Shown here: positions 48,673 through 60,051 of the stretch, in pieces
How positions within the stretch are numbered: position 1 is the stretch's first letter
Layout of the letters: each line of letters begins with the position of its first letter
Assembly: GCA_964540135.1 (NCBI GenBank)
Contig: CAZILK010000004.1
Location: forward strand, 1 to 60,952
Direction: 5' to 3'
Source of the DNA: an uncultured Candidatus Saccharibacteria bacterium
GTDB lineage: Bacteria; Patescibacteriota; WWE3; UBA101185; UBA10185
DNA: 60,952 bases
The notes under the pieces: model-generated
What the model was told of the DNA's origin: nothing
The model's database searches: none
The model's input: the letters and a program-made list of their open reading frames with translations, nothing else
Position numbers and translations under genes: made by a program

Positions 48673-50226
48673 ATGTCTGCCCTGTTTGCCAAAAAAAATA
48701 CACTTCTTGATGCTTTTGCTCCACAATACTTTGATACTTGCATTATAAAATTTGGCGATGCAAAAATTAAAGATCTAATTAAAGGCAAATTTCCAGCAAT
48801 CCAATACACTCTTTCAGGTTATGATATTTCTGAAGTAACCCAGGACGATAAATTGCAGCTTGTAACTATTCTCTTTCACCTTGATGTTAATGAGAACGGT
48901 GAAAGACAGGCAATCACCAATCTTGAAGATATTATAACTAAAGTTAAAGATAGAATAGGTGCTGACAAAGAGTTTAACGAGCTACTCTTAAAACTCCCTG
49001 AGGGAGTTTTTGCTGTAAATAAGCTGAAGATCATCCCAAGAGAAGAACTTGAAAAACAATTTCAACTTGTTGCAGCGGAACTTGTGAAAACAAGAGAAGC
49101 ACTAAATACAAGTGTTTCAAAACAAACCCTTGATCTGGCTGCTGAAAAAGATGTTTTGAAAGTGACCCTGTACAACACAAGCGATGGAGTTTTTGCACTT
49201 GATAAAGACGGTAAGGTTATAACGTTTAATAAAAAGATGGAAGAGTTAACGGGGTTTTCTTCCGATGAAGCTAAAGGAAAACCTTCAGATGAGATTGTGA
49301 GACTTTTTGATGATACCTTCCCTCTTGATAGCGCAAAATACAGCCCTGTTGTAGACAATGTTACTGAAAGAAATGTTTATTCAAATAACAAAGTCACACT
49401 TGTTTCAAAAACCGGAACTAAAAGGTATGTTCGGATGGTTAGCGCTGCTCTAAATGAACCAGCTGAAAAAAATCTTGGAAGTATCGTAACTCTTACCGAT
49501 ATCACAAAAGAGATTGAACTTGAGAATATGAAAATTGATTTTGTATCGATCGCAGCGCACGAACTAAGAACGCCATTAACCTCAATTAGAGGGTACCTTG
49601 AGTTATTAAACTCAAAGCTTGGAACATCGCTTGATCCTGAATCACAAACTTATCTTGAGAAAGTAACAGTTAGTGCTGATCAATTGCACATCTTAATTGA
49701 GAACTTACTTAACATTTCAAGAATTGAAAAAGGCAGTCTTATACTAAATAAAAAACCTGAAAAGATTGAGGCTGCAATCACTTATGTGCTTTCAAACTTT
49801 GCGGCAATCGCTAGTCAAGCTGGAGTTACTCTTAACTATATTCCGCCAAAAGCACAAATGCCTGATGTGTTTGTTGATCATACGATGATTGTTGAGGTGC
49901 TCTCAAATCTTGTAGACAACGCAATAAAATATAATAAAAAAGATGGCTCGATTACAATTACAACTGAGCTTACTGATGACAAAGTTATAACCTATGTGAA
50001 AGACACAGGTGTTGGAATTGCTGCTGAATCACTTCCACATATTTTCAAAAAGTTTTATAGGACGTCAACAAACGCTCTAACTCAAGGGCGAAAAGGCACA
50101 GGACTTGGTTTGTTTATTTCCAAACAAATTGTAGAATTACATGGAGGACAAATTACATTAACCAGTGTTCAAGGTGAGGGTACTACATTTAGTTTTACCT
50201 TACCTGTTTTTAAAGAGGCAAACTAA
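48673..50226 (+). CDS. soluble PAS-HisKA-HATPase sensor kinase with unrecognised N-terminal domain
   Basis: AHELRTPL, NLVDNAIKY, DTGVGI, GTGLGL; no TM helix. Confidence 0.93.
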   Translation: MSALFAKKNTLLDAFAPQYFDTCIIKFGDAKIKDLIKGKFPAIQYTLSGYDISEVTQDDKLQLVTILFHLDVNENGERQAITNLEDIITKVKDRIGADKEFNELLLKLPEGVFAVNKLKIIPREELEKQFQLVAAELVKTREALNTSVSKQTLDLAAEKDVLKVTLYNTSDGVFALDKDGKVITFNKKMEELTGFSSDEAKGKPSDEIVRLFDDTFPLDSAKYSPVVDNVTERNVYSNNKVTLVSKTGTKRYVRMVSAALNEPAEKNLGSIVTLTDITKEIELENMKIDFVSIAAHELRTPLTSIRGYLELLNSKLGTSLDPESQTYLEKVTVSADQLHILIENLLNISRIEKGSLILNKKPEKIEAAITYVLSNFAAIASQAGVTLNYIPPKAQMPDVFVDHTMIVEVLSNLVDNAIKYNKKDGSITITTELTDDKVITYVKDTGVGIAAESLPHIFKKFYRTSTNALTQGRKGTGLGLFISKQIVELHGGQITLTSVQGEGTTFSFTLPVFKEAN

Positions 50227-50639
50227 TGGCTACACAAAAAAGAATATTAATGATCGAGGATGATGTTTATATAAGAGAGCTTTACGAGGAAGTTTTAAAA
50301 AAGGCAGGTTATTTAGTAATTACAGCAGTAGATGGGGAGGAAGGTTTGGTCAAAGCTTCCGATGGAGAATACGACCTGGTGCTTCTCGATATTATGCTAC
50401 CGAAATTAACCGGCATTGAAGTCTTAAAAAAACTAAGAGAAAAGGGAGCCACGACCGAGGAAATTCCAATCTATTTGCTTACTAATCTTGGTGAAGAGAC
50501 TATTGCAAAAGAAACCTATAAACTTGGTGCTAACGGTTATTTATTAAAAGCAAAATATCTGCCAAAAGAACTTGTTAAAGAAATTGATAAGTTTTTTGTT
50601 AAAAATGAAAGAGGCACTCTAACAACAATTCAGGCATAG
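50226..50639 (+). CDS. stand-alone receiver (REC) response regulator
   Basis: IEDD, LLDIMLP, LTN, conserved Lys; no output domain. Confidence 0.93.
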   Translation: MATQKRILMIEDDVYIRELYEEVLKKAGYLVITAVDGEEGLVKASDGEYDLVLLDIMLPKLTGIEVLKKLREKGATTEEIPIYLLTNLGEETIAKETYKLGANGYLLKAKYLPKELVKEIDKFFVKNERGTLTTIQA

Positions 50640-55260: not shown

Positions 55261-55289
55261 AAAAAGACCCGTGTAAAAAGCGGGTCTTT
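55261..55289. terminator. bidirectional intrinsic terminator
   Basis: AAAAGACCCG-N9-CGGGTCTTTT perfect 10-bp stem between convergent hup and kinase genes. Confidence 0.9.
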
Positions 55290-55293
55290 TGTG

Positions 55294-56529
55294 TTATTTG
55301 GAGTAATTTGGCTCGCGCTGAATTTTAACAAGAAGCTCTGGATCGCTCTCGTTGTGGATTTGTGATGAGGTGAGCTCTTTTGTTGGGAGTGTAAACCAAA
55401 AAGTTGTTCCTTGATTCTCGCCTTTTGATGACACACCTACCTGTCCTCCCATATGTTCAATGTAGAGTTTAACAATATATAACCCAAGGCCTGTTCCACC
55501 GGATTCAGCAACGGTTTGATACGAGTAGTTTAGCCTGCCAAACTTATGAAACAATCTCTTCATATCCTCAGGAGCAATGCCTTTACCGGTATCTTCAATT
55601 GAAACTTTAACAAAATCATCCGGTATTGATTCAGCAGTTACAGTAATACCGCCTTGAGGGGTGAATTTAATTGAGTTGCCGATGAGGTTAATCATTATTT
55701 CATTAAGCCTCATCTTGTCTGCATAAACTTCAGGAATATCTGCCGGGACGTCCCATTTACAAAAAAGATTCTTCTCCTTACACCTGACATCAAAGTCTCC
55801 TAGAGTGTCTTGTATGGCCTCAAGAAGGCCTGTTTTCTCTATCTTTATCTCCATTCTACCCTGCTCAATTCGCGAGATACTAAGCATGTCGTTAATTAGG
55901 GCAAGCATTCTTTCGGTACCTTGAGCAGCCTTTTGAACATACTCCATTTGTTTTGGAGTTAGGTTACCGCCTTTACTGGCTCCAAGCATCCAAAGATAGC
56001 TTTTTATAATGGTCATTGGAGTTCTAAGTTCGTGGGAGGTTATAGATATGAAGTCATCTTTGGCTTTTTCAAGCTGCTTTTCTTTTGTGACATCGACCAT
56101 GGTAACAAGACATTCTTGTTTGCCTTGAGTTGGGTTAATAATTGAGGAGTGGACATTAACAATATAGTCGCTGGTCGCGCCTTTCAGTATCAAGCCGTCC
56201 ATTTTTTTCCTATCGTTAGTTTGAACAAAGCAAAACTCCTTTAAATCAACCGGGGCTCCTTTATCATTTGTTAATGCGATAACTTGTGGGGCAGGGAGGT
56301 TTAAAACCTCATCCAGTTTTTTATTTAGTATCTTTTCAAGAGTGTTATTGAAGAGTGTTATGTTAAACTCTTCGTCAACAGCAAACACTGCTTCAGAAAG
56401 TCCGTAGAGAAGCTGCTCAGCGCGTCTTCTGGCATCTAACAGCTCAAGGTTCTTCTTGTAAATTTCTTCAGCAAAAGATGCGTTATTTGTTACATTATTA
56501 ACAACTTTTTTTTCTGGGGTAGAGAGCAT
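55294..56529 (-). CDS. soluble PAS-HisKA-HATPase sensor kinase
   Basis: SHELRTPM, NLIGNSIKF, DTGKGI, GTGLGL; no TM helix. Confidence 0.93.
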   Translation of the reverse strand: MLSTPEKKVVNNVTNNASFAEEIYKKNLELLDARRRAEQLLYGLSEAVFAVDEEFNITLFNNTLEKILNKKLDEVLNLPAPQVIALTNDKGAPVDLKEFCFVQTNDRKKMDGLILKGATSDYIVNVHSSIINPTQGKQECLVTMVDVTKEKQLEKAKDDFISITSHELRTPMTIIKSYLWMLGASKGGNLTPKQMEYVQKAAQGTERMLALINDMLSISRIEQGRMEIKIEKTGLLEAIQDTLGDFDVRCKEKNLFCKWDVPADIPEVYADKMRLNEIMINLIGNSIKFTPQGGITVTAESIPDDFVKVSIEDTGKGIAPEDMKRLFHKFGRLNYSYQTVAESGGTGLGLYIVKLYIEHMGGQVGVSSKGENQGTTFWFTLPTKELTSSQIHNESDPELLVKIQREPNYSK

Positions 56530-56855
56530 TATTTAGCGCTTGTTAACTGCTTTTTTACACTGTCTGAGAGGTATGGTTCTATCTCTTGGTAAGGAAGCTT
56601 TTTTAAGACATCAAGACATACGTTAACTGAAGTTTGTCCAAATATCTCAGCGTAGGAAGCGATGAGCTTATCAATAGCAGCTTTTGGATCTCCGTTTATA
56701 GTTATATTTGAGATATTAATAGTTGGTGTTGGTGTTGAAGTAGCTGTATCGCTCTTAAGTTCCGACACTGTTACTGCCCTGGACCATGCTAGGTTCTTTC
56801 CGATAATTAAACTCTGCTCCTCAATGATTTTTTTAACAATATCGTTGTGTTGCAT
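56529..56855 (-). CDS. small soluble hypothetical protein, 108 aa, coupled to the kinase gene
   Basis: TAATG stop/start overlap with the kinase; predicted helical. Confidence 0.8.
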   Translation of the reverse strand: MQHNDIVKKIIEEQSLIIGKNLAWSRAVTVSELKSDTATSTPTPTINISNITINGDPKAAIDKLIASYAEIFGQTSVNVCLDVLKKLPYQEIEPYLSDSVKKQLTSAK

Positions 56856-56901
56856 TTTCAGTATCTATAGTTTTACAAAGTTTACTGGGGTTGGCAATAG
56901 T

Positions 56902-57723
56902 CTAGCCCAGTTTCTCATACGCTTTCCTAAATCTAAGTAAGGCGTAGCTTATTAAAAAATACGCTAGAAAAACTAAGTAATCATCAAAACCTGCTGGTCT
57001 CCAGTTTCCTAGATTATCACTTACCGCATATTCAATATCTGCAACATAAAAAATTAAGACACTAGATAGTAAAAGTAAGGTTGGTACTTTTAATAATCCG
57101 CCTAGATATTTAGAAGAGGCTACAAACGAAGTTGATATAATATAGAACATACAGATATTACCAATGAAAGTTATAGAATCTATACCAAGTATTACCCAGC
57201 CTTGTAGGGTTGTCAGCTCGATACTAGCTTTGTCAAAAACAAAAATTGCGTAAACTGTGAGATAAACTAACACCAGTACTCCTGATAAAATGAGCCCTGA
57301 CCTTCTTAGCCTTCCCATATCAATACTTTGAGACGCGAAAATTCCTTGGATCTTAATTAGACCGAATAAGAACAAGAGATTTCCCGTAACATAGAATACA
57401 TCACCTATAGAAGGATATGCATTTTCTATTCCCAGAACATAGTAGTAGAAGCTGTACGAGACTTGAAAAAAGAATTGGAATAGGAGTCCGGTTGAAATGA
57501 ATAGTAACCCTGCGCCCACTTTACTTTGCCTTCCGCCCCAGAGTTTAGAGACAAAGATACCTGTTATCCCACCTACCAGAGCAACTAGACAATAGGTGCT
57601 GGTAAAAATGAATCTTAAGGATTCGTCAGAAGTGAAAGTGTTTAAAAAGACCCACATACCTGTAAAAAAGAAAAATAAAATCCAAAGTAAGATATTTAAT
57701 GAATATACATTTTTACTTTTCAT
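56902..57723 (-). CDS. stand-alone multi-pass membrane protein (about 7-8 TM), putative sensor
   Basis: WGG..S..G, YPSIGD.FY, W.PAG..D motifs; no output domain. Confidence 0.8.
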   Translation of the reverse strand: MKSKNVYSLNILLWILFFFFTGMWVFLNTFTSDESLRFIFTSTYCLVALVGGITGIFVSKLWGGRQSKVGAGLLFISTGLLFQFFFQVSYSFYYYVLGIENAYPSIGDVFYVTGNLLFLFGLIKIQGIFASQSIDMGRLRRSGLILSGVLVLVYLTVYAIFVFDKASIELTTLQGWVILGIDSITFIGNICMFYIISTSFVASSKYLGGLLKVPTLLLLSSVLIFYVADIEYAVSDNLGNWRPAGFDDYLVFLAYFLISYALLRFRKAYEKLG

Positions 57724-57758
57724 AGGTATGATATTATGGTACATAATATTTAGATCTT

Positions 57759-58994
57759 ATGTCAATAAAAAGCTTGCGACAACTTTATAAACCAGACTCA
57801 TTTAGGATCAGCGGTGTGTTTTACTTACTTACATTTTTTACCAACCTGTTCTTTTATGAGGGTATTTGGGTTTTCTACTGGACTAAATATATGTCCTACT
57901 CTATTCTCGGCTATGTTGGAGCAGTAGCTTTTATCTTTGGTCTACTTCTTGAAATACCGTCAGGGGTATTAGCGGATAGATTCGGTAGAAAAAGGACCGT
58001 TATTTTATCGCTATTTTTTCTTTTACTGAGTGGAACGTTAATTTCATTTGCGACTAATGCTTACCACCTGGTTATTGGCGTCTTTTTACTACAAGCTGGT
58101 TTTGCATTTCTGTCCGGATCCCTAGAGGCGTTAACATACGACAATCTGAAAGAAATTGGCAAAGAGGAAGAATTCGAAAAAGTTATAAGTAGGTCAGTTA
58201 GTGTGAGCATTCTAGCTGTATCGGTATCTATTCTGATAGGAGGGTATGTGTTCAAGTTTAACGATAGGCTTCCGTATTTGCTTTGGACTTTCTCTTCTGT
58301 TGCAGCTTTTATTGCAGGCATGTTTTTAAAAGATACCAAATCCTATATTATTACTGAGGACACAGATGGGTGGTTCACGCAGTTAGTAGCCGGTGCTTCT
58401 GCTCTGTTGACCAAGAGCAATATTTTTGTTGCTTTGAGTGTTTTTGCAAGCTTTGGAGTTTTTTACTTTTTTGATTGGGGTTTCTATAAGTCTGCTATTC
58501 TAATACATAACAATGTTTCAGCATTTAACCAGTCAGTTTCTTTTTCCTTAGGTAATTTTATAGCCGCGTTGTTTACAGCGTTGATGCTGCCGATTTTAAT
58601 TAGCCGATTTAATAAGCAAGCTGTTTTAATTTCTTTCATGTTAGCTATGAGTTGCTGTTTCTTCGTTTTAGGTATTCAGACACACAATTTTGCAATCATA
58701 CCTGTGCTGTTCATTATACTAATTGGAAACGCTTTCTATGCGCTTGCCTCAATTATTATTAACAACAATATCGAATCAGAACTAAGAGCTACTACGCTAT
58801 CGACTTTGACATTTACAGCAAAAGTGCTATTTATTATACTTTCAGCGTTCTCCGGTTTATTAATAGAAAACAATAAGATAGAGGCGTTATCCTACTTATT
58901 AGCATTGATTGTGTTATTGCCGATACCAGTCCTAATACTTTTCACGATTAGAACTAGAGGCATGAACAGGCGGGCTAGGAAGTCCGTTTCGTAA
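57759..58994 (+). CDS. MFS transporter
   Basis: Motif A GVLADRFGRKR, about 12 TM, ELRATTLS. Confidence 0.9.
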   Translation: MSIKSLRQLYKPDSFRISGVFYLLTFFTNLFFYEGIWVFYWTKYMSYSILGYVGAVAFIFGLLLEIPSGVLADRFGRKRTVILSLFFLLLSGTLISFATNAYHLVIGVFLLQAGFAFLSGSLEALTYDNLKEIGKEEEFEKVISRSVSVSILAVSVSILIGGYVFKFNDRLPYLLWTFSSVAAFIAGMFLKDTKSYIITEDTDGWFTQLVAGASALLTKSNIFVALSVFASFGVFYFFDWGFYKSAILIHNNVSAFNQSVSFSLGNFIAALFTALMLPILISRFNKQAVLISFMLAMSCCFFVLGIQTHNFAIIPVLFIILIGNAFYALASIIINNNIESELRATTLSTLTFTAKVLFIILSAFSGLLIENNKIEALSYLLALIVLLPIPVLILFTIRTRGMNRRARKSVS

Positions 58995-59883
58995 TCTTGT
59001 ATTTTTTATAAACCTCATCAAATAATTTCGATTTGGTTAATCTTAGATTTTCAATCCCTAAATCGTATCCAATGTTTATCTTACGGATGCCTTCTTGGTG
59101 TAAATCATTCATCACGTTGTAAACTAAAGCCTCAAAGGCACCTTTAATTGCATTGTCAGCTATTAAGAAGTGCCCAAAAGCGAATTTCTTCTCGACCTTT
59201 TCATTCAATGAGAAACCAACAAGTTTATTATCTACTCTCATTGCAAGACCCTTAACGTTTTTAAACACCTCGTTCTTTGAGCGCAGTGTTTCTATGCAGT
59301 TAATAGAAGACCGTGCTTGAAATGATTTTATATTGTTATTGCGCTTGGCCCAGGAATAGAACAATTCTTCAATTTCTTGAAATATTCCTTTATCAGACAT
59401 GGCAAACTTTTCAACGGTGACGCCTTCGTTATATGTGTAAAACTTTCTTAGTAATCTTCTTGTATCTTCGAAGTTTTTGCCTTTAAGACTTAGGTATTTT
59501 CCAATCCCGACTACATAATCAATCTTATTTGTTTCTGTCGCTACCAGAAATCCCGAATTTCTAATTTTTTTAATTCGGCCTCTCAGAGTGTCTGCTTGAA
59601 TATTTGTGATTTCACCAAAATCTGTCACCAGGGTTTCTATAGTTTCTAAAACTTTTGTTTTTCCAAGAAAAGTTATGGTGTAACCATCAGTTAAAAAATT
59701 ATCCATCTCCAAAACTAAGTTATTGTTTAAACTGGAGATCAGGGTTGGGTTGCGTAAGGTGTTCCACGCATAGGCTTCTACGAAACTACATTCAACATAT
59801 GGCTTGAGTACTTTCGTAAAGTCCTCAAAAGCCTCTTTGTCTTTAATATTCAATTTTCGAAAGTTTGGGTATTCTGGAAACAC
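58975..59883 (-). CDS. DUF2156 / MprF C-terminal-like aminoacyltransferase-domain protein, stand-alone
   Basis: YLSLKGK....RR...KF, GFSLNE, INIGYDLGIENLR..K; GTG start 59883 after TTGACT-N18-TACAAT-N6. Confidence 0.7.
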   Translation of the reverse strand: MFPEYPNFRKLNIKDKEAFEDFTKVLKPYVECSFVEAYAWNTLRNPTLISSLNNNLVLEMDNFLTDGYTITFLGKTKVLETIETLVTDFGEITNIQADTLRGRIKKIRNSGFLVATETNKIDYVVGIGKYLSLKGKNFEDTRRLLRKFYTYNEGVTVEKFAMSDKGIFQEIEELFYSWAKRNNNIKSFQARSSINCIETLRSKNEVFKNVKGLAMRVDNKLVGFSLNEKVEKKFAFGHFLIADNAIKGAFEALVYNVMNDLHQEGIRKINIGYDLGIENLRLTKSKLFDEVYKKYKITKRTS

Positions 59884-60051
59884 CCCCCAATTGTACATTA
59901 CTATAGGATATGGAGTCAAATAAACACAAGTCAATTATTAAGTAAATATCCTGCAATTACAATCGTTTGAGACTTTGTCAGAATTATTTTAACTTTGTTT
60001 AATACTGGAGAAAAGGTTGACTGCTTCGATGATTTTGTTATAAGTCATAGT

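Follow-up and report, generated by a model that had tools for sequence, protein, structure and literature searches.

A conserved three-gene cassette of Patescibacteria that may encode a three-part split sensor histidine kinase

In the MCP-CheW-CheA system of chemotaxis, a receptor without enzymatic output, a small soluble coupler and a soluble kinase are co-encoded, and the output goes to a receiver-only (CheY-like) regulator. Here we describe a locus that appears to follow a similar plan in a 60,952-nucleotide (nt) stretch of DNA, the window, which is positions 1 to 60,952 of contig CAZILK010000004.1 of an uncultured Candidatus Saccharibacteria bacterium. Three co-oriented minus-strand genes, as a first-pass annotation of the letters had noticed, encode a polytopic membrane protein (TM280), a 108-residue soluble protein (S108) and a soluble histidine kinase (HK411). 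Patescibacteria have very small genomes with few recognisable signalling proteins, and their host and envelope sensing is largely obscure. We consider it fairly probable that the three genes form one signalling unit whose products are the separate polypeptides of a split sensor histidine kinase; its physical contacts, signal direction, ligand and phosphoacceptor are our inference. The likeness to chemotaxis would be one of design, because there is no homology, and Pfam gave no MCPsignal or CheW domain and neither the Hpt nor the P5 domain of CheA in TM280, S108 or HK411; this agrees with the earlier comparison to MCP-CheW-CheA built from unrelated parts. The cassette kinase belongs to the ordinary class-I HisKA enzymes and has a PAS or GAF domain, and the receptor would cross the membrane eight times, whereas an MCP is a coiled-coil protein with two transmembrane (TM) segments. 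If the proposal is true, the cassette would be a second receptor-coupler-kinase design made of separate polypeptides beside the chemotaxis arrays.

Kinases that do not sense by themselves are known from the PstSCAB-PhoU-PhoR and Bce/GraXSR-VraFG systems, where a separate membrane protein informs the kinase via a soluble adaptor (PhoU, GraX). However, these kinases are membrane anchored and their membrane partner is an ABC transporter, whereas HK411 is soluble and its presumed partner is a single protein of ~270 residues; no PhoU or GraX homology was found in the cassette. GraXSR controls mprF, and a possible parallel is that a gene resembling the C-terminal part of MprF is the commonest neighbour of the cassette. 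Polytopic membrane modules at the input position are also represented by MASE1-n, 7TMR-DISM, 5TMR-LYT and HisKA_7TM, to which the TM280 family may be compared, since its members occur fused to TrmB-type helix-turn-helix (HTH) and NB-ARC domains. In contrast to those modules, the cassette module is a separate polypeptide, and hmmscan at E<=10 gave no Pfam-A match in 14 members of the family, only scattered chance matches; TM280 itself had no NCBIfam match and no PDB sequence match.

Anabaena sensory rhodopsin is a 7TM-type protein with a small soluble transducer, ASRT. In heliorhodopsin-kinase neighbourhoods, a 7TM-type membrane protein is co-encoded with kinases (PMC8612252). The likeness of the cassette to both extends to structure searches, as a Foldseek comparison of the TM280 model with the PDB returned only generic 7-TM bundles and the best matches were microbial rhodopsins (proteorhodopsin at a TM-score of 0.5, followed by G-protein-coupled receptors). 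However, the E value was only ~0.1, and S108 is mostly helical with a short beta-hairpin and no PDB match. We ruled out a rhodopsin reading of TM280 on the basis of its eight helices, the weak Foldseek scores and the lack of a conserved retinal-binding lysine, the only lysine conserved in at least 70% of the family being K73 in a cytoplasmic loop.

The cassette and its signals lie in the window as follows.

56902..57744, minus strand: TM280, 8-TM membrane protein (open reading frame, ORF), the proposed input (sensor) module
56529..56855, minus strand: S108, small soluble protein of 108 residues (ORF), the proposed coupling module between membrane protein and kinase
55294..56529, minus strand: HK411, soluble class-I histidine kinase (ORF, Pfam and NCBIfam)
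57736..57765, minus strand: best match to a sigma-70-like promoter ahead of TM280, TTGACA-18-TACCAT, 10/12, a consensus match only
55262..55290: hairpin terminator with an 11-bp stem, common to HK411 (minus) and a convergent HU gene (plus)

TM280 and S108 are separated by 46 nt with S108 downstream, while the S108 stop and the HK411 ATG overlap in the sequence TAATG and have one base in common. Both this overlap and a strong terminator after the kinase had been noticed in the letters and are present; the terminator hairpin can be written AAAAGACCCG-N9-CGGGTCTTTT, with 5 GC pairs in the stem and an A-run and a T-run on its flanks. An alternative ATG at 57723 gives a 273-residue TM280 equal to the protein-database record P0001, and it is likely the true start; it also fits the best promoter-like match. 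A second hairpin with a 7-bp stem (56888-56908) overlaps the TM280 stop within the spacer before S108. It has no T-run on the coding strand and is therefore no terminator, but an influence on mRNA stability or on the relative expression of the genes is possible.

The conservation of this gene order was followed in two scans, both anchored on exact peptide motifs. Scan 1, anchored on the TM family with one genome per GTDB species, yielded 27 Patescibacteria loci and 3 Nitrosopumilus loci, and scan 2, run on metagenome contigs and anchored on the small protein (14-sequence alignment), covered 69 distinct small proteins. We found a recurrent order in which the TM-family gene, the small gene and the histidine kinase gene follow each other, with a gene for an LPG_synthase_C-like protein in front on either strand; the three are adjacent and co-oriented in ~20 Patescibacteria species genomes. 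In a set of 32 loci (the 27 Patescibacteria loci, the window and four close relatives), the small protein and the kinase are each present in 26. In the metagenomic loci, the TM-family gene lies directly upstream on the same strand in all 48 loci that could be tested (median gap, 5 nt), and the kinase lies directly downstream of the small gene in 38 of 43 (median gap, 25 nt) and one gene further downstream in two more. Because the three-gene arrangement recurs in dozens of distinct genomes, it is far beyond chance. The first-pass annotation had named two of these outcomes as refuting its proposal, that the genes do not co-occur elsewhere or that they are one frameshifted gene. Co-occurrence is now evident, and the single frameshifted gene is ruled out, since separate ORFs with short gaps or overlaps are seen at every locus except the decayed L032 and two fusions, which join only the TM and small parts.

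The fusions also indicate how the parts may be connected. The 427-residue protein P0085 (L037:4735-6018 (+)) consists of a TM domain, a 15-residue linker, a small domain and a coiled-coil tail, and in L070 a 353-residue TM+small fusion is followed by the kinase; the linkers of the two fusions are ~15 to 20 residues long. On the kinase side, 47 of the 58 cassette kinases have in common an N-terminal helix, E-x-(I/M)-Y-K-(K/R)-N-x-E-L-x-x-R-N-K-x-L, with a GAF or PAS domain next to it. In HK411 this conserved helix reads EEIYKKNLEL (residues 21 to 30), and it is absent from HK517, a non-cassette paralogue listed below. A related motif, PEK(M/L)Y.(K/Q)N, stands after the small domain in the tails of P0085 and P0070 at a position matching the kinase helix. 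Because TM and small parts are found fused, the kinases share a helix, and the motif of this helix recurs after the small domain, we infer a linear order of TM, small domain, helix, PAS/GAF, HisKA and HATPase, which would be that of a usual membrane-bound sensor kinase interrupted in two places. The question is testable, given the small size of the parts and the natural fusions, which show where contacts should be expected. The P0085 gene is flanked by two RHS/YD-repeat toxin-like genes.

Several observations weigh against a single three-part unit. The N-terminal motif is missing from 11 of the 58 cassette kinases. Six close relatives of the locus carry S108 at 71 to 85% identity, and in all six S108 and the kinase lie side by side, overlapping or separated by no more than a few bases, but only L001 has the TM gene immediately upstream in the same orientation; in L002 to L006, a TM paralogue either has the opposite orientation or is separated by one gene. 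In L002, L004 and L005, the closest relatives of the window, the TM gene next to the small gene is inverted or displaced while the small and kinase genes are still coupled, so that the three need not be transcribed together. No kinase follows the TM+small pair in L018 and L027, and none lies near the L037 fusion (a 6.8-kb contig), so this pair can exist without the kinase. Moreover, anchoring on exact motifs may have missed divergent members with other contexts. Finally, the constant adjacency of a TM paralogue and an LPG_synthase_C-like gene, taken up below, could mean that the TM protein acts as an enzyme or transporter and is not purely sensory.

The persistence of the coupled small and kinase genes, which keep a tight 1-nt overlap in all close relatives even where the TM gene has moved, is what would be expected if S108 regulated the kinase only, either as an inhibitor or activator comparable to Sda, KipI or FixT or as a detached N-terminal domain of the kinase, and if TM280 were an anchor or were co-expressed for an unrelated envelope function. 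The rates of divergence fit this explanation as well. Between the closest locus pairs, the small proteins are 86% identical and the kinase cores 87%, so that the two evolve at an equal rate, and their divergence shows the best correlation (r = 0.61, compared with 0.47 for TM and small protein). However, the TM-small adjacency (48/48) is tighter than the small-kinase adjacency (38/43), and the whole-protein fusions observed join TM and small parts, with none of small protein and kinase among them. We therefore regard a role of S108 confined to the kinase as quite improbable and prefer the single signalling unit. The TM proteins of the same closest locus pairs are only 48% identical, and such fast divergence would fit exposed receptors.

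The AlphaFold2 (AF2) model of TM280, built with 14 sequences, shows eight helices (pLDDT 86, pTM 0.86), which accords with the 7 to 8 TM segments expected from the letters, and the WGG, YPSIGD and W.PAG..D motifs pointed out there are all present as WGGRQSKVG (residues 69 to 77), YPSIGD (110 to 115) and WRPAGFDD (248 to 255). The Lys/Arg-rich loops (N-terminus, 69-74, 138-146, 211-218 and C-terminus) are all on one side and the acidic loops are opposite. Because of this charge distribution and the C-terminal fusion to the small domain, which is cytoplasmic, we may assign TM280 a predicted topology with both the N-terminus and the C-terminus inside. Among 70 sequences of the family, the conserved positions fall into two groups: W31, P109-Y110-P111, D115, D189, D236 and D255 in the outer half, and W69-G70-G71, S74, G77 and L214-G215-G216 at the cytoplasmic face. 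The two halves of TM280 can be aligned with one another (hhalign E 3e-4, probability 38%) in such a way that WGG pairs with LGG and YPSxGD with WxxGGxxD, suggesting that the protein was probably built by a 4TM+4TM duplication. When the TM alignment was used as a profile against the protein database, no new members appeared among the best 8000 candidates.

The TM domain also occurs in other company. It is C-terminal to a TrmB-type winged helix in L014 (L014:913-2556 (-), 547 residues, PF01978 at 2.5e-7), to an NB-ARC STAND NTPase in L102 (L102:3-1736 (+), 577 residues, 6.4e-16) and to an unassigned domain of ~150 residues in L030 (L030:2647-3903 (+), 418 residues). From their domain make-up, these proteins resemble one-component regulators bound to the membrane and a STAND protein, all with one common input module, and such promiscuous pairing with output domains would be typical of sensor modules. 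Among the relatives found by the motif-anchored scans, none is fused to a kinase or a cyclase. The earlier statement that YPS.(A/G)D-type regions are normally fused to kinase or cyclase domains could thus not be confirmed, as only stand-alone copies and fusions to TrmB-HTH, NB-ARC and the small protein were found. In the archaeal Nitrosopumilus loci (L034:5800-6603 (+), L035 and L036), a 267-residue stand-alone relative with YPSIGD has small HTH-like proteins on its flanks; a domain like the small protein at the start of the downstream 191-residue HTH-like protein was considered and ruled out at an hhalign probability of 3%.

Upstream of the cassette, the window contains a TM280 paralogue and the LPG_synthase_C-like gene mentioned above.

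58975..59934, minus strand: gene for an LPG_synthase_C-like (MprF C-terminal domain-like), putatively soluble protein (Pfam PF09924, 8.6e-13)
59995..60924, plus strand: TM309, TM280 paralogue (27% identity), divergent from the LPG_synthase_C-like gene

The product of 58975..59934 has the LPG_synthase_C domain in common with MprF, but it is only 319 residues long with no Pfam assignment in its N-terminal 130 residues, so that it looks like a relative of the MprF synthase domain only. Together with an MFS gene, it lies between TM280 and TM309; the MFS gene (plus) and the synthase-like gene (minus) are convergent, and their 3' ends overlap by 20 nt (58975-58994). In the set of 32 loci, the synthase-like gene adjoins a TM-family gene in 25, and among the conserved neighbours of the cassette it is the commonest. 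In the window and every relative, a TM paralogue adjoins the synthase-like gene even where the cassette is rearranged (L001-L005), which suggests a separate link between TM and synthase-like proteins. Other recurrent neighbours are EamA or MFS exporters and polyamine decarboxylases; by Pfam, an EamA transporter is found in 11 of the 32 loci, an AdoMet decarboxylase in 7 and a pyruvoyl arginine decarboxylase in 5.

It is this neighbourhood that gives weight to the main rival of the sensory interpretation, in which TM280 is a small transporter, a flippase, or a membrane partner or scaffold of the LPG_synthase_C-like enzyme, and S108 reports its state to the kinase in the style of PhoU/PhoR or BceAB/BceS; the system would still have three parts, but TM280 would do work of its own instead of serving solely as a receptor. 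The attachment of the synthase-like gene to the TM family, which outlasts the rearrangement of the cassette, and the recurrent exporters and polyamine decarboxylases would all be explained, and the internal 4+4 repeat and the intramembrane Asp, Pro and Gly residues of TM280 are features of many transporters. On the other hand, Foldseek matched the TM280 model with no transporter and no MprF membrane domain in the PDB, only with the generic 7-TM bundles, and the fusions to HTH and NB-ARC are those expected of a sensor domain. In addition, the orientation of the synthase-like gene varies, whereas the order of TM, small and kinase genes is fixed. Taken together, we consider the transporter or enzyme-partner explanation unlikely, and we continue with TM280 as the input module of a split kinase.

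S108 is encoded by the ORF 56855..56529 and has no hydrophobic segment above threshold in a hydrophobicity scan, so its earlier description as a soluble 108-residue protein stands. A profile of the family run exhaustively against 1.8 billion representatives retrieved 68 clusters, nearly all of them stand-alone proteins of 85 to 110 residues whose database names are 'hypothetical' or 'uncharacterized', and the nearest relative beyond the clade of the window belongs to candidate division WWE3. The AF2 model is confident (pLDDT 88.6, 62 sequences) and contains two helices at the N-terminus, a beta-hairpin that varies, one long helix and two short ones. There was no Pfam or NCBIfam match, no meaningful PDB sequence match and no structural neighbour in the PDB (Foldseek, best E 3); H-NOX-like Foldseek matches were dismissed (E 5 to 8, probability at most 0.21). 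The conserved residues among 85 sequences are I10, I11, Q14, I18, G19, A23, A27, V30, G55, L64, Y68, F72, G73, Q74, S76, V77, V79 and C80. C80 (~56616-56618 of the window) ends the motif FGQxSVxVC; a cysteine is found at this position in at least 85% of the 85 small proteins and at least 90% of the 62 sequences in alignment A3, and a redox, metal or structural role is a candidate function.

A small helical protein encoded next to a kinase, and in many cases close to a receiver-only gene, might also be an Hpt-like phosphotransfer protein or another phospho-relay component between kinase and receiver. However, no His or Asp is conserved in the 85 family members, from which it follows that S108 should not be an Hpt or receiver-like phospho-carrier, and Pfam and the PDB gave no Hpt match. 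Because there is no conserved phosphorylatable residue, the Hpt explanation appears close to refuted, and we give it hardly any credence compared with a coupling role of S108.

HK411 contains a HisKA domain (PF00512, 2.2e-17, residues 156 to 224) and a HATPase_c domain (PF02518, 1.1e-27). The H-box S-H166-E-L-R-T-P is conserved in at least 85% of the 58 cassette kinases, and the N, G1, F and G2 boxes of the HATPase domain are conserved as well (N281/N285, D313-G315-G317, F327/F330 and G345-G347-G349); as judged from these residues, HK411 is a HisKA-class two-component kinase with intact catalytic motifs. The hydrophobicity scan found no TM segment. The protein had been described as a TM-less PAS histidine kinase, and this holds with the remark that the PAS match is weak (PAS_9, 3.5e-4) and below the gathering score. 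Its best NCBIfam similarities are to PnpS, WalK and PhoR-type kinases, all below cutoff. The sensor domains of the cassette kinases vary, with GAF in most lineages and a PAS-like domain in the clade of the window.

Two further genes of the window bear on the output of the kinase.

50226..50639, plus strand: REC137, receiver-only response regulator (Pfam Response_reg, 9.8e-23), a candidate phosphoacceptor
48673..50226, plus strand: HK517, second soluble PAS kinase and HK411 paralogue (33% identical)

REC137 is the sole receiver domain in the 61-kb window; it overlaps the stop of HK517 and is co-operonic with it. The stop/start overlap of the two genes is 1 nt, the same kind as that of S108 and HK411. 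The cassette had been said to contain no response regulator, with the only one at 50226. This is correct for the window, but it does not extend to other genomes, since a receiver-only gene adjoins the cassette kinase in 17 of 35 metagenomic loci; a receiver-only gene is likewise present in 13 of the 32 loci. REC137 is 38 to 47% identical to the receiver-only genes that adjoin the cassette kinase in other genomes.

On the basis of these features, the unit could work in the following way. TM280, a bundle of eight TM helices whose two ends are predicted to be cytoplasmic, would be the input module, and a cue would bind the conserved acidic and aromatic pocket in its outer-leaflet half, which would comprise W31, YPSIGD with D115, D189, D236 and D255. 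Binding would change the cytoplasmic glycine loops WGG69-71 and LGG214-216, and S108, docked under the cytoplasmic face of TM280, would pass the state of the receptor to the N-terminal helix of HK411. From there, the change would travel via the PAS/GAF domain to the DHp domain and alter autophosphorylation at H166. HK411 would then pass the phosphate to a receiver-only regulator, which in this window would probably be REC137, encoded 5 kb away and shared with HK517, and in about half of the other genomes would be the product of the receiver-only gene adjoining the kinase.

As for the cue, a cationic ligand of TM280 is our guess, because the family has four conserved aspartates and its gene has an MprF-C-like enzyme, polyamine decarboxylases and EamA/MFS exporters as neighbours. 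These three kinds of genes steadily accompany the cassette and suggest that what it senses or controls is surface charge or lipid remodelling. One may tentatively extend this to a modular system widespread among the Patescibacteria, with a fast-evolving, pseudo-symmetric 8-TM receptor whose outward acidic pocket takes a cationic envelope or host cue (polyamines, aminoacylated lipids or cationic peptides), a coupler of new fold that connects it to a soluble kinase, and reuse of the receptor with HTH and STAND outputs; we think this wider scheme possible but doubtful. If it were true, the cassette would be one main route of environmental or host sensing in these reduced episymbionts, and its receptor-coupler-kinase design would have evolved independently of that of chemotaxis.

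The cassette is a real, conserved and apparently undescribed three-part variant of two-component signalling, found here mainly in Patescibacteria and containing two unannotated families; our literature searches, of incomplete coverage, found no prior description. Two of its three parts have no counterpart in Pfam, NCBIfam or the PDB and are 'hypothetical' in all sources checked. By record titles, the lineages with the cassette include WWE3, Woesebacteria, Gottesmanbacteria, Levyibacteriota and Magasanikbacteria. Ten loci (L010, L011, L013, L014, L016, L019, L024, L030, L032 and L033) carry the titles 'uncultured Gammaproteobacteria' or 'Pseudomonadales', and these labels look unreliable because the gene content resembles that of the Patescibacteria loci. 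In L008, L009, L011, L016 and L032, genes for a type IV pilin-like protein with an N_methyl motif, a 360-residue membrane protein and a receiver-only regulator form a block 2 to 3 kb upstream of the cassette, often with the pyruvoyl arginine decarboxylase gene between the two, and this receiver-only regulator may be related to pili.

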